DNA of 64,000 bases from an uncultured Chlamydiae bacterium (GCA_963730605.1 CAVSSM010000007.1:96001-160000), one strand, 5' to 3'; numbered from the stretch's first letter, positions 3,347 to 8,714 are shown. Notes: generated by a model from the letters alone, not told the origin. A program made the numbers and translations.

Positions 3347-4234
3347 TTATTTTTTTTTCCTACCAACCACGGTAGGGAAAACATGTAATGTATCATAATG
3401 AAAGATCACTTCCCAAAAGCCTGCCTTTTTTAGCTCGTGTTCAATTTCATCAGAAGTCCGGAAATTGCGCCATTGAGGGTCGAGTATATCTTTATAAAGA
3501 ACTTTTTCCAGAAAGAGATCCTTGGCAGATATTTTGTCAACTTGCCATTCTGAAAGCCCGTTTTCTCCAGGAGGATATGTAAGAAAACCAAGAATCAACT
3601 GACCTCCTGGCTTTAGAGCTCTGAAAAATTGACGATATAGGTCCAATACTTTTTGCCGATCTGGCGTATAAATATTGAGTCCACAGCTTGTTATTATGTC
3701 TATTTCAGAATCATAAGGGAGCTGCCAGGCATCTTGTTGACATAAGCTTAGATTTTGGGAGAGACCTCTCTCAGCCGCCAGTTGTTCAGCAAGCATTAGG
3801 GAGTCCAAATCAATGTCTATTCCAATAATTTTAAAATCAGAAATCGATGAGAACTCTAGCTGCAAAAGTTCTCTCATTGCACCACAAGGAATGGAAGCTA
3901 AAGTCATGCCATCTTCTAAATTTTCTTGAGTGATTTTCTGAAAATTTTGCAACAACTCGCGCCATGCAATTGTAAATGGGGAACGGTATAGAATAAAATT
4001 TTCAATATCACAGCATTCTTTTTGTTCAGTATTCGTCATGATGAAATCCGTCCAAAAAGCATCTATTGAATTTTTCTCTACAAGAAGTTGTCCTAAAGGG
4101 AATTGAGCTAATGCTTCGACATAGCTCAATAAATCTCTAACAGAGGTATGTGTCAGATCGCCTCGCTGGATAATCCGGCGTCGCAAATTAGTCAAGGCGA
4201 TTTGGAAAGTACTAGAAAATTGCGGCTCACTCAT
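3347..4234 (-). CDS. Class I SAM-dependent methyltransferase
   Basis: LASIPCGAMRELL, IIGIDID, QDAWQLP, RALKPGG motifs; overlaps the end of the A-domain gene. Confidence 0.85.
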   Translation of the reverse strand: MSEPQFSSTFQIALTNLRRRIIQRGDLTHTSVRDLLSYVEALAQFPLGQLLVEKNSIDAFWTDFIMTNTEQKECCDIENFILYRSPFTIAWRELLQNFQKITQENLEDGMTLASIPCGAMRELLQLEFSSISDFKIIGIDIDLDSLMLAEQLAAERGLSQNLSLCQQDAWQLPYDSEIDIITSCGLNIYTPDRQKVLDLYRQFFRALKPGGQLILGFLTYPPGENGLSEWQVDKISAKDLFLEKVLYKDILDPQWRNFRTSDEIEHELKKAGFWEVIFHYDTLHVFPTVVGRKKK

Positions 4235-5786
4235 GGAGACTTAGTAATGCGCTACGATCGATTTTCCCATTAGGTGATAACGGAAATTTATTTATCTGAA
4301 TAACGGAAAAAGGAACATGTTTGGGTAGCAATGTCTTTAAATACCGAAATAGAAAACTTTTGGCCATCTTTTTCAAAGCAGTGATGTAAATAACCAACTG
4401 TTTCTCTCCTTGGGAGTTATTTTGGAGTAAAACAGCAGATTCCTGGATATTAGGGCGATTAGAAATATGGTGCTCGACCTCTCCTAAGTTAACCCAGTTT
4501 CCGCGAATTTGAACATTATGATCAACACGGCCCAAAAATTCGAGCTCTCCATTGGATAAAAACCGCCCAATATCACCTGTTCGATAAAGTCGAAGAAATT
4601 CATTTTTCTGGGATTGAACGTAGATAAATTTTTCATCAGTTAATTTGTCATTGTTCCTATATCCTTGTGCCAGACCAATACCGCCGATAAATATTTCCCC
4701 TTTTACTCCTTTTGGTAATACATTCAGATTGTTATCAAGAATGTAGACCTGAGTGTTTGGCAAAGGATTTCCCACGGTAATTTGACAAGCAAGTGAACTT
4801 TTAGGGCTATAGATCTTAGCTATCGTCGCGCCTATTGCATATTCGGTCGGTCCGTACTCGTTGTAGAGAAGAGCATTAGATGCTAATTTTGCGTGTAGGG
4901 AACACAAGCTCTTGGATGCATTTTCGCCTGTAAGGCTGACGCATTTTAAAAAAGGAAGGGGGGTGTTTTTCTGTAGTAACTTCAGATATTGAGAGGGAAC
5001 GCAGATCATGAAATCAATAGAATTGGCTTGAATGAAGTTTAGCAAATTGTCAACCCCATCTTTCATATTATAATTAAATAAGTATAAAGGTGCATTATTG
5101 GCCAAAGCGTGAAAGATAACTAGAAGACTTGCATCAAAACACACCCCACCAGATACAAGCATTCGCATGTTAGGTGGATAGTACTCCCTGTGAGCTAAGG
5201 CAACATTTGCAAGGCTTTCATGGGTAATCATTATACCTTTAGGGGGCCCCGTTGATCCCGATGTGTAGACCACATATGCCAAATTTTCTGGCTGTATCGA
5301 AGTGTTTGAGAAGTTATTATGTAGGCGATATTCCCCATCGAAAATTTTTTGCTCGATTTCTATTACTTTATTGCCTTTAAACAGTGAAGAAAATCGAGGC
5401 TCTACTAATATTGCAGCTGGGTTTGAGTCTCTTACCATATGCTGCAAACGCTCATTAGGATACTCAGGGTCTAAAGGGAAATAAGCGGCCCCAGCCTTAA
5501 TGATGCCTAGCATTGAAATAATGAAATCTATGTTTAAGGAGGAACACAAGCCAACTAAATCATTTGGTTTAATTCCAAACTTTACTAAAAGTCTTGCTAA
5601 ATTATCTGATTTGTTATTAAGTTCTTCATATGTAATGTGCCTAGTTCGATCTATCGCAATGTGCTGGTCAGGATATTTACTTGCTTGTTCGCGAAATAAC
5701 TGAATAAAATTCTTACACGTATTTTGAGATCGATAGCTGCTTTTAACTGTTAATTTACTTGTCTGAGGTGTTTCTAGTAATGGCAT
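4227..5786 (-). CDS. Stand-alone NRPS-type amino acid adenylation domain (no C, PCP or TE domain)
   Basis: A3 AYVVYTSGSTGPPKG, A4 FDAS, A5 NEYGPTE, A7 YRTGD, A8 GRVDHNVQIRG, A10 NGKIDR; the protein ends 8 residues later. Confidence 0.92.
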   Translation of the reverse strand: MPLLETPQTSKLTVKSSYRSQNTCKNFIQLFREQASKYPDQHIAIDRTRHITYEELNNKSDNLARLLVKFGIKPNDLVGLCSSLNIDFIISMLGIIKAGAAYFPLDPEYPNERLQHMVRDSNPAAILVEPRFSSLFKGNKVIEIEQKIFDGEYRLHNNFSNTSIQPENLAYVVYTSGSTGPPKGIMITHESLANVALAHREYYPPNMRMLVSGGVCFDASLLVIFHALANNAPLYLFNYNMKDGVDNLLNFIQANSIDFMICVPSQYLKLLQKNTPLPFLKCVSLTGENASKSLCSLHAKLASNALLYNEYGPTEYAIGATIAKIYSPKSSLACQITVGNPLPNTQVYILDNNLNVLPKGVKGEIFIGGIGLAQGYRNNDKLTDEKFIYVQSQKNEFLRLYRTGDIGRFLSNGELEFLGRVDHNVQIRGNWVNLGEVEHHISNRPNIQESAVLLQNNSQGEKQLVIYITALKKMAKSFLFRYLKTLLPKHVPFSVIQINKFPLSPNGKIDRSALLSLHE

Positions 5787-5801
5787 TTTACCGCCTTTTG
5801 G

Positions 5802-7013: not shown

Positions 7014-7079
7014 TTTTTTTCAATTGCATTGGCAACGCTTTGCTCCTATTCGTCATCATACTTTACTAGTTTTTTCAGT

Positions 7080-8714
7080 TTAAAGATTTATCTTTTCCCT
7101 AGTGATGTTTTCTACTTTTTTTAAGAGGTGACCCGATTTGATAAGTTTTGCGAGCTCTTCAAGATAGTCAGTAAGACATACATCCTCAGACAGGTAAGGA
7201 ATGACTTTGCGAACAAGAGAAAATGCCGACTTTGTTGCAGCACTCAGCAATTCAGCATTACGCATTTCTGCCGCTTGAGCACCGCATAGAAGTTCGAAAG
7301 ATAGGACGTAAACGGTATTTTCATAGAGTTCTTGTGCTCGCCGAGCAGCAATTAATCCCAAGGAGACATGATCTTGAAAATCACCCGTAGATGTAAGAGA
7401 TTGAGTTGAGACAGGATGGCATAAAGAACGGTTTTCGGCAGTCAAAGAAGTCGCCATAAACTGACCTCCCATAAGGCCTAAACGAAGTCCTGGATTTGTG
7501 TTACAAAGGAATGGTGGCAAATGGTTGCTATGATGCTTGTCCATAAAACGATCGATTCGACGATCAGATAGGTTGGACAGAGTTGTGAGACAGATGCTCA
7601 GATAGTCCATAGCCATCGAGATGTATTGACCGTGAAAATGGCCGTTATGAAATGCCTCTTGGCAATCAGAGAGGATTAAGGGGTTGTCATTACTTGAGTT
7701 AATTTCATTGGTAACGATGGATTGAATCCACCGAATCGTGTCTCGAATCGGACCTAAGATATGAGGGGTACAACGGATAGAGTAGGCATCTTCTATAGGA
7801 GACTCTACGAAAGTGACAGCTTTATTTTCATGAGCCTGTAACTGTTTTTCAACGTCTTTTTCATCCACGATCATTTTGCTATCTTCAAGCAAATTCCAGA
7901 TGTTTTCTGCTGTTTGGAGTTGTCCTCGATGGGGTTTTTGGCGATGAACGATTGGATTAAAAGGTTTTTTCTTAACTTTGAGGCTTTCAAAGGTGAGACA
8001 AGAGATGATGTCATAGGTCTTGACTAGGGAGATAGCTTGCTCTATTAAGATAGCTGCAAATCCTGTCATCGCAGACGTACCATTAACTAAACTCAAGCCT
8101 TCTTTAAAACCCAGCTTCATGGGTGTGAGCCCAGCTTGTTTCAATGCTTTATCTCCTGAAAGAATTTCGCCTTTGTATTTTGCCTTCCATTTTCCTGTAC
8201 CTACGAGCGCAATGCAGGCTAAAGGACCTAAATCTCCACTAGCGCCTAAGGAGCCTTTAGATGGGATGCAGGGAACAATGCCAGCATTGTACATTTTTAA
8301 TAATTTATTGAAATTCTCCTCGCTAATGCCCGAACAACCTCGTGCCAGTGAGTTCAAACGTACAAGCATTGCAGCTCTAGAAACTGCATCATCTAGATAT
8401 GGCCCTACATTTGTAGCTACAGCTGAGATCAAATTCTCTTGGAGTTTTTGAGCGTGTTTTGTGGAAACAAGCCAATTGACGAATCCACCAACGCCTGTAT
8501 TCACGCCGTAAATCACTCGATCGTTATCCACTAACTGGTTTAACAACTGGCGAGAGGCTCTCACACGTTCCGCACAATCTTGTGTAATTGTCACTTCTTG
8601 CTCATAGTCATGCACTGCGGAAAAAACGTCAAAAGTAGAAAGAGAATTACCGTCGAGGATCAGCTGAGTCGAAGAAATTTTTCTTTTTTTATTTGGGGGG
8701 TCTCTTGTAATCAA
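7080..8714 (-). CDS. MIO-dependent aromatic amino acid ammonia-lyase/aminomutase, AdmH/EncP-like phenylalanine aminomutase type
   Basis: GSLGASGDLGPL (MIO from ASG), IYGVNTG, LQENLISAVATNVG, EDAYSIRCTP, NSSNDNP, HNGHFHGQY. The AVATN segment is the AdmH/EncP type rather than the SH of histidase. Confidence 0.9.
   Translation of the reverse strand: MITRDPPNKKRKISSTQLILDGNSLSTFDVFSAVHDYEQEVTITQDCAERVRASRQLLNQLVDNDRVIYGVNTGVGGFVNWLVSTKHAQKLQENLISAVATNVGPYLDDAVSRAAMLVRLNSLARGCSGISEENFNKLLKMYNAGIVPCIPSKGSLGASGDLGPLACIALVGTGKWKAKYKGEILSGDKALKQAGLTPMKLGFKEGLSLVNGTSAMTGFAAILIEQAISLVKTYDIISCLTFESLKVKKKPFNPIVHRQKPHRGQLQTAENIWNLLEDSKMIVDEKDVEKQLQAHENKAVTFVESPIEDAYSIRCTPHILGPIRDTIRWIQSIVTNEINSSNDNPLILSDCQEAFHNGHFHGQYISMAMDYLSICLTTLSNLSDRRIDRFMDKHHSNHLPPFLCNTNPGLRLGLMGGQFMATSLTAENRSLCHPVSTQSLTSTGDFQDHVSLGLIAARRAQELYENTVYVLSFELLCGAQAAEMRNAELLSAATKSAFSLVRKVIPYLSEDVCLTDYLEELAKLIKSGHLLKKVENITREKINL

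Follow-up and report, generated by a model that had tools for sequence, protein, structure and literature searches.

In a stretch of DNA from an uncultured Chlamydiae bacterium (GCA_963730605.1 CAVSSM010000007.1:96001-160000; the whole stretch of 64,000 nucleotides is referred to below as the window, and its source genome as G000), we describe a cassette of four genes that fairly probably yields a carrier-free, methylated beta-phenylalanine (beta-Phe) product of some kind. As to the identity of this product, we favor, tentatively and at somewhat below even confidence, an aminoacyl-beta-Phe methyl ester that would be made and exported without a thioester step. As originally predicted, the four open reading frames (ORFs) are co-oriented, all on the minus strand, and tightly packed, with the same boundaries. 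They encode a Phe 2,3-aminomutase of the AdmH type, belonging to the 4-methylideneimidazole-5-one (MIO) enzymes (7080..8714, 544 aa; TIGR04475, 3UNV); a major facilitator superfamily (MFS) transporter with weak similarity to Tet efflux proteins (5802..7013, 403 aa; PF07690); a stand-alone adenylation (A) domain of the nonribosomal peptide synthetase (NRPS) type, with no peptidyl carrier protein (PCP) and with a degenerate A8 motif (4227..5786, 519 aa; TIGR01733, alignments, and a structural model); and a class I S-adenosylmethionine (SAM)-dependent methyltransferase (MT) of the 3OCJ/FmtB type, likely a carboxyl O-methyltransferase (3347..4234, 295 aa; 3OCJ). The genes are separated by 66 bp and 15 bp, and the last two, for the A domain and the start of the MT, overlap by 8 bp.

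In the pathway that we propose, the aminomutase would turn L-Phe into (S)-beta-Phe, an activity expected from its family. The A domain would adenylate an amino acid, either beta-Phe or an aromatic alpha-amino acid, as its motifs allow, and a free amine would attack the adenylate directly to give an amide, as suggested by the loss of the A8 motif and the lack of a carrier. The MT, judging by its likeness to FmtB, would then esterify the remaining carboxyl, and the MFS transporter would export the product. Alternatively, the MT could act first, beta-Phe methyl ester being the attacking amine. A dipeptide-like ester accounts for all four genes, since the A domain and the MT both act on carboxyls.

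Formation of beta-Phe by the cassette enzyme is the part of this scheme that we regard as highly probable. The protein passes the aminomutase model TIGR04475, narrowly (803.5 bits at a cut-off of 800), fails the HutH models (TIGR01225, 482.8 of the required 539 bits; NF006871, 490.7 of 524), and scores below the cut-offs of the tyrosine aminomutase (TAM) and phenylalanine ammonia-lyase (PAL) models. AdmH (3UNV) is its best match among solved structures (E = 8e-183). The MIO tripeptide (ASG in the window enzyme, TSG in the Vibrio one), the tyrosines of YGVNT and YSIRC, AVATNVG, and GGQFM are all present as in AdmH-type enzymes, and the active-site segments match those of the andrimid-cluster enzyme. 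In the tree, the protein falls among the AdmH-type enzymes and away from the other MIO proteins of chlamydiae, at a place where long branches meet; its nearest relatives are other chlamydial copies and not the andrimid or enterocin producers, and no relative was found among the viral contigs searched. The original assignment to the AdmH type rather than to HutH is thus upheld by both the models and the tree; of the claim that the segments AVATNVG and HNGHFHGQY are shared with AdmH and EncP, the part concerning AdmH stands, as both segments are present and align with AdmH, the enzyme covered by our comparison.

That the MIO enzyme is a lyase in vivo, so that the MT would form methyl cinnamate and the A domain a cinnamoyl amide or ester, is quite unlikely. 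Not only does the enzyme pass the aminomutase model, but the amine-binding Asp is kept in the A domain of all 38 members of its clade (clade I, see below), whereas aryl-acid ligases are not known to have this residue, and an ester that is neutral and volatile would scarcely call for an MFS transporter of its own. What speaks for a lyase is the activity of this kind described for AdmH and EncP under some conditions (PMC3903478), as well as the preference of FmtB for a hydrophobic free acid (PMC5426589).

The A protein retains everything expected of an amino-acid adenylating enzyme. It matches TIGR01733 with 354 bits (cut-off 317), its model (predicted local distance difference test score, pLDDT, 88.9) superposes on GrsA-PheA (1AMU) with a template modeling (TM) score of 0.83, and the motifs A3, A4, A5, A7, and A10 are intact. 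Its pocket reads DALCSTEIGK, the positions having been placed by motif and numbered as we take them to be numbered in GrsA. The protein ends 11 residues past the A10 lysine, K508, and profile scans of it detected no PCP, condensation (C), ketosynthase (KS), or thioesterase (TE) match, just as the original prediction had it. In a tree of 96 A domains, from which 22 near-duplicates, fragments, and distant rows had been dropped and which had A-PCP didomains as outgroups, two carrier-less clades emerge with support of 99 each, clade II nested within the A-PCP proteins and clade I, that of the window, beside them. Throughout clade I (n = 38), the P-loop, D218, YGP-E, TGD, R420, and K508 are almost invariant (D218 and K508 occur in 38/38), and the pocket is DAL[CS]STEIGK in 36/38. 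Selection on the window gene is purifying (dN/dS 0.13-0.17; the core has 0.14, the C-terminal subdomain 0.26).

The A8 motif behaves differently. Compared with its A-PCP relatives, the window protein carries the changes Q424N, K426Q, R431W, and E433N, and the complete motif QxKxxGxRxE is found in 0/38 members of clade I, 11/11 of clade II, and 48/49 A-PCP proteins. Among the 76 sites conserved in A-PCP, clade I has lost six of the eight that belong to A8 and only five of the 68 elsewhere; the lost A8 sites are variable and have not been re-fixed. According to PMC6122825, the A8 glycine forms part of the wall of the pantetheine tunnel, and when it is mutated only thioesterification is blocked, while the residue two positions further (Arg in NRPS; R431 here) specifically contacts the thioester-forming state; similarly, PMC8460268 describes a CoA/pantetheine pocket formed in part by A8. 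Because the motif is lost and the cassette holds no carrier, we consider amino-acid adenylation without a thioester step to be probable, and the carrier-free second step of the original prediction gains support from the A8 loss. That the substrate is an amino acid follows from the kept amine-binding Asp. A contig from a soil run (public run X2) matches positions 4481-4657, including the altered A8 codons, with zero differing letters; this speaks only against an assembly error, and the run may come from the source study. Another feature of clade I is Cys216, located ahead of the A4 Phe-Asp in 38/38 proteins and in 0/49 A-PCP proteins, which makes it a candidate internal thiol.

Which amino acid is adenylated is less constrained. 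A domains for beta-amino acids are marked by a loop one residue shorter, a bulky residue 236, and a larger residue 301 (PMC11253843, section 2.3). Since the window protein shows only one of these three signatures of the VinN/HitB type, Thr301, together with Ala236 and a full-length loop, we leave the choice wide, and an alpha-amino acid acylating beta-Phe seems as plausible as a beta-Phe dimer; the A protein of the andrimid cluster likewise has a full-length loop. These incomplete signatures also tell against closure of beta-Phe-AMP on itself to give a beta-lactam, 4-phenylazetidin-2-one. ANL-superfamily (acyl-CoA synthetase, NRPS A domain, luciferase) beta-lactone synthetases perform an analogous closure with beta-hydroxy acids, and such a reaction would need neither an acceptor nor A8, in good agreement with A8 sites that are relaxed and not re-fixed. 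We nevertheless find it very unlikely, since no carboxyl would remain for an FmtB-like MT and the kept Asp should hold the amine protonated.

For the MT, the closest known structure is 3OCJ, both by sequence (E = 7e-55, 34% identity) and, over the whole length, by fold (Z = 38.7, root-mean-square deviation 2.6 over 293 residues; the next match has Z = 19.9), and the SAM-binding Asp (D140) is invariant, so that both the FmtB-type fold and the cofactor residue are in place. The 3OCJ protein is an ortholog of Bordetella FmtB and was crystallized with a probable palmitate; overexpression of FmtB raised fatty-acid methyl esters in vivo, with no activity seen in vitro (PMC5426589). In one protein (P0036), an MT of the window type is fused to the A domain. 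Other MT fusions (with a reductase, an esterase, CutA, a HAD protein, or a second MT in tandem) show no common theme, and a search of the ESM Atlas returned only unnamed class I methyltransferase clusters. The MT of a related cassette type (type II, see below) is unrelated to that of the window; its best match is BioC in five cases out of five, with Tam among the matches, all below cut-off. Both MT types of the family point to carboxyl O-methylation, which seems more likely than methylation on nitrogen and which we rate as reasonably probable for the cassette MT. The transporter, a likely exporter, matches PF07690 and falls far below the cut-offs of the Tet models; the same MFS family occurs in type I, type II, A-less, and carrier-bearing loci, with a tree that for the most part mirrors the A groups.

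The cassette recurs across the Chlamydiota. An AdmH-type gene is present in 30 of the 401 genomes of our phylum sample, and 31 aminomutase loci were compared, drawn from 29 genomes, of which one contributed two, and from G018. Six of these are of type I, having the same set as the window, namely aminomutase, MFS transporter, stand-alone A domain, and FmtB-like MT; seven are of type II, with a stand-alone A domain and a BioC/Tam-like MT; six have the aminomutase, an MT, and an MFS transporter and no A domain, one of them with an aminomutase-MT fusion; and the rest comprise six with an EamA transporter only, one with an ATP-grasp ligase, one with a full assembly line, and four that are fragmentary. 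Aminomutase-MT fusions occur at two loci. Co-occurrence of the four homologues, on which the original prediction depended, is therefore real: to the six loci a further type I copy, L010, can be added, which occupies the same contig place in a genome of the chlamydial family f7, its Acidobacteriota record label being probably wrong. When metagenomes were scanned with the A alignment, 68 loci at 29-37% identity came up, and not one of them matched the aminomutase, MFS transporter, or MT.

Gene order differs among the loci, the same genes lie in unrelated contexts, and dN/dS relative to close copies is 0.08-0.20 for all four genes (3/10 pairs are saturated or have dS >2). This pattern largely refutes the idea of a defunct or decaying remnant of a larger cluster that owes the loss of its carrier genes to the neighboring IS3 element, and so do the ends of the clade I proteins: in 37 of 38, the chain stops 7-26 residues beyond K508, and the remaining one is the MT fusion. 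We attach almost no weight to this idea, even though the cassette is surrounded by an IS3, by repeats, and by a duplicated flank and other broken NRPS pieces exist in the genome. The original prediction had named a known cluster truncated by the IS3 among the outcomes that would refute it. Local truncation by the IS3 is all but refuted, the same carrier-less set recurring across Chlamydiota; what survives is reduction of an assembly line in deep time, as its A-PCP and KS-ACP-TE relatives (ACP, acyl carrier protein) indicate, the ancestral line not being a described cluster.

The A-less loci raise the question of whether the A domain contributes to the product at all. They and the aminomutase-MT fusions imply that an MT can act on a beta-Phe-derived acid, and they would fit a product that is simply beta-Phe methyl ester, as would the relaxed A8 sites; the A protein would then have an accessory role, in which it binds beta-Phe, channels it, or adenylates it but completes no second step. 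We consider this improbable: the A domain is under purifying selection with all adenylation motifs kept, its gene overlaps the start of the MT gene and is fused to the window MT type in P0036, and the A-less loci use another MT type.

Beyond the stand-alone proteins, the A domain has its closest homologues in A-PCP didomains, whose neighbors include the same MFS family and a KS-ACP-TE protein in which Cys-His-His is intact; a BioC/Tam-like MT is often present as well, as is an Sfp-type transferase. In a search of 400 genomes with the A-PCP protein of L013, 15 genomes had a stand-alone member (G000 included), of which 14 have the aminomutase, and 15 had A-PCP with KS-ACP-TE, of which one does; this count does not include multimodule NRPS matches or the distant A-PCP loci L191 and L192. 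In the 15 stand-alone genomes, a full KS-ACP-TE was nowhere found, a different KS-ACP occurring in one and a KS fragment in another. The sole exception to the pairing is L190:9179-12916, where a clade II stand-alone A domain, an MT, and a split MFS gene lie in a 98% complete genome in which no aminomutase was found. Searching the family more widely brought in G001, which is of the carrier type and 62% complete and in which no aminomutase was found, and G460, which has a type II cassette plus a full line with an aminomutase and an FmtB-like MT. As judged from homology and gene neighborhoods, the cassette is descended from a chlamydial cluster of MFS, MT, A-PCP, and KS-ACP-TE, and branch support in the A tree indicates that the carrier was probably lost twice.

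Could a carrier be supplied in trans? Besides FabF and one AcpS-size transferase, the source genome encodes a small ACP and a 930-aa AMP-binding protein containing another; no type I KS was found there. The lack of carriers stressed in the original prediction stands for the cassette, the genome itself having a free ACP and a candidate phosphopantetheinyl transferase. In five other clade I genomes (94-99% complete), the ACPs are likewise limited to small ones (84-105-aa frames) and that of a protein of about 900 aa. In G000, a PCP does occur on contig C11 (L040:860-1755), where the last ~280 residues of an A-PCP protein, frameshifted, are 85% identical to the intact A-PCP of G001 from the same genus. 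We rejected it as a partner, as it is a truncated, frameshifted relic of another A-PCP and no such relic exists in the five other clade I genomes; the frameshift is possibly an assembly error, the missing first ~330 residues are not. The identity of this relic to the A-PCP of G001 suggests that the lineage once had a carrier-type cluster and later gained the carrier-less one. A further NRPS remnant, a C domain followed by the beginning of an A domain, lies between two transposases on contig C2 (L044:1501-2640).

Given these carriers, the A domain might still act in trans and form a thioester with CoA or the ACP of fatty-acid synthesis, whose enzymes would replace KS-ACP-TE; the resulting beta-amino beta-keto chain would close on itself to a six-membered lactam of the 6-phenylpiperidine-2,4-dione type, which the MT would O-methylate. 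This is unlikely in our view, the least so of the alternatives. It is favored by an ancestor with KS (Cys-His-His), ACP, and TE resembling MucE (PMC10161427), by the presence of AcpP, AcpS, and FabF in G000, by the retention in clade II of A8 and of the MT type of carrier clusters, and by the description of FAALs (fatty acyl-AMP ligases) that reach the ACP through another pocket (PMC8460268). The variable, never complete A8 of clade I and its different MT type argue against it, and it fits clade II better than the window.

Several observations weigh against the carrier-free ester that we prefer. The window A domain keeps D422 and the A8 glycine, G429. Two stand-alone control proteins adjoining T (thiolation) or ACP genes keep only three and four of the five A8 residues; one of them shares the K to Q change and both keep the Gly and Arg, so that only the Arg loss separates clade I from them. 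Clade II, having no carrier, keeps A8, which means that carrier loss does not force its loss. The contrast of 14/15 and 1/15 genomes reflects few events among kin that are not independent, and G000 is only 83% complete. The absence of an Sfp-type transferase had to be rejected as proof of a carrier-free mode, as six of 17 carrier-bearing genomes likewise show only AcpS. Furthermore, the beta-amino-acid pocket signatures are mostly missing, AdmH and EncP can also act as lyases (see above), and the evidence on FmtB is in vivo only and for fatty acids, at just 34% identity to the window MT.

The surroundings of the cassette agree with the horizontal acquisition proposed in the original prediction, as well as with its description of AT-richer genes flanked by an IS3 and miniature inverted-repeat transposable elements (MITEs). 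The GC content of the cassette is 0.39 compared with 0.496 genome-wide, a value equally low in 0.14% of 2161 genome windows of the same size, and GC at third codon positions (GC3) is 0.32-0.37 in its genes and about 0.6 in two flanking genes. The aminomutase gene was not found in 6/6 genomes of the same genus (62-96% complete), and, given this and the low GC, the cassette is probably a recent import into the lineage. An IS3-family element outside the pathway adjoins it (1457..2902, plus strand; NF033516; TG...CA inverted ends), with copies on C1 (99% identical) and, partial, on C2 and C7. A short genome-wide repeat lies downstream of the MT (3130..3197; 35 BLAST hits in the genome), and upstream of the aminomutase are a MITE-like element with 24-nt inverted ends (8850..9031; one other copy, on C8, 98.8% identical) and another short repeat flanking the cassette (9040..9155; 29 hits). 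Three copies of a gene pair, rlmD and an unknown 367-aa gene, are found around the cassette with 91-98% identity (window 1-1456 and 9155-11626, and C7 of G000 before the window); the pair is intact to the right, two deleted copies lie left of the IS3, and the start of the IS3 coincides exactly with the end of this repeat. A promoter scan of the cassette gave seven sites with 16 expected by chance, nothing usable, and no RNA run is among the listed sequencing runs that contain the cassette.

Elsewhere in the window, an AcrB-type pump gene is split into three ORFs (35953-39044) and release factor 3 into at least two (24016-25288), both either pseudogenes or results of assembly indel errors. An ankyrin and SET domain protein (28982-30367) is of a kind that resembles host-chromatin-directed proteins of intracellular bacteria, and an enzyme of the MbnB/TglH/ChrH family lies with a DUF2063 partner at 21812-23552.

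Related loci in other genomes deserve mention in their own right. The cluster of MFS, MT, A-PCP, and KS-ACP-TE lacking an acyltransferase (AT) is widespread in chlamydiae (L013:6148-19598; L176-L189; L193; L195), often also with a lipocalin-like gene and Sfp, and is probably, by analogy, a tetramate-type pathway. A second, distant MIO type, 27-28% identical to the aminomutase and with the segment ESHDAGIG in the two proteins aligned, adjoins these clusters together with MTs, an MFS gene, and once a GNAT gene (L163:10515-15393, L182:13895-19901, L194:1677-4035). At three other loci, an ATP-grasp gene resembling L-amino-acid ligases lies beside the aminomutase (L012:5221-11584, L017:5142-11719, L018:8689-18656; three phyla according to the record titles, Chlamydiae, Patescibacteria, and Pseudomonas), which, from gene content, is a separate carrier-free route to an amide. 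A seryl-tRNA synthetase gene is nearby in 3/3 and a class III aminotransferase gene in 2/3; this cassette may make a beta-Phe peptide inhibiting seryl-tRNA synthetase, the nearby copy conferring self-resistance. Finally, a two-gene unit of aminomutase and EamA transporter, which may export free beta-Phe, occurs in six genomes of one genus (L015:9983-12587, titled Candidatus Rhabdochlamydia; L150-L154, L159).

If the proposed pathway is correct, it requires nothing beyond Phe, ATP, and SAM and should work in the absence of a phosphopantetheinyl transferase; with four genes and such simple inputs, a single experiment in E. coli can test it. The broader proposition, that Chlamydiae turned an NRPS A-PCP module into a thioester-free ligase, shedding its carrier, the PKS, and the A8 thiolation loop and gaining a beta-Phe aminomutase and a carboxyl MT as partners, and so arrived at a four-gene route to a beta-dipeptide methyl ester, is a possibility about which we are doubtful. 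The loci form a natural series, from full A-PCP/KS-ACP-TE lines through carrier-less A domains with A8 kept and then lost to loci with no A domain, which would show an assembly-line enzyme becoming a free ligase and be useful for biocatalysis of peptide bonds with beta-amino acids. If the proposition is true, the ester would also be a candidate for the first effector of environmental chlamydiae that is a small molecule. Methyl esters of amino acids and dipeptides build up in lysosomes and damage them, and the product could act on host digestive compartments or on co-infecting microbes.

Among known systems, the andrimid cluster of Vibrio coralliilyticus OCN008 (its genes presumably being those named AdmH, AdmI, and AdmJ) shares with the cassette an aminomutase of the same family beside a stand-alone adenylating enzyme. 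In contrast to the cassette, it has free carriers (T domains), A-T, and KS proteins, and the window A domain, which shares just 27% identity with the AdmJ-like protein, derives from another A-PCP family, a chlamydial one. Carrier-independent ANL amide ligases, in which an amine or hydroxyl attacks the adenylate with no thioester, are also known; in cystargolide biosynthesis (CysG/CysF/CysD), such an attack is combined with a carboxyl MT in the same cluster. The likeness to these ligases is one of description, CysG and BelI being only mid-rank fold matches, whereas the window A domain clearly derives from an NRPS A-PCP protein and has a pocket for an amino acid. FmtB (BP2936) and BPP1064 (3OCJ) of Bordetella share the whole-length fold of the window MT, which differs from them in its linkage to an A domain and its place beside an aminomutase.

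The layout of the ancestral chlamydial A-PCP and AT-less KS-ACP-TE (Cys-His-His) cluster is similar to that of MucD/MucE of mutanocyclin and reutericyclin biosynthesis, which makes a tetramic acid by lactam closure; MucE was reported to refuse an unacylated amino acid (PMC10161427). The Muc and Rtc proteins are C-A-PCP, whereas the two chlamydial A-PCP proteins scanned (L013, L195) had no C-domain match, and the window itself lacks PCP, KS, ACP, and TE, only its relatives having A-PCP and KS-ACP-TE. Another endosymbiont, Mycetohabitans, uses an AdmH-type aminomutase for a beta-Phe product at its habitasporin locus (HabA/HabB), the deletion of which impaired host entry (PMC9802438); that locus is a full multimodular NRPS, the window a carrier-free cassette. 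Chlamydial biosynthetic clusters have been described as widespread and mostly of unknown function in PMC9666466, which counts NRPS-like clusters and, in its main text, mentions the NRPS genes of the genome titled as that of L013 with no aminomutase; this main text contains neither "phenylalanine" nor "ammonia-lyase," and the sampled row of its supplement, one of 49 matches to "aminomutase," is a glutamate-semialdehyde aminomutase. We found no published description of the cassette in the literature covered, which mostly excludes subscription journals. The component parts are of known kinds, and what distinguishes this cassette from the systems above is the traceable conversion of an A-PCP module and an undescribed product.

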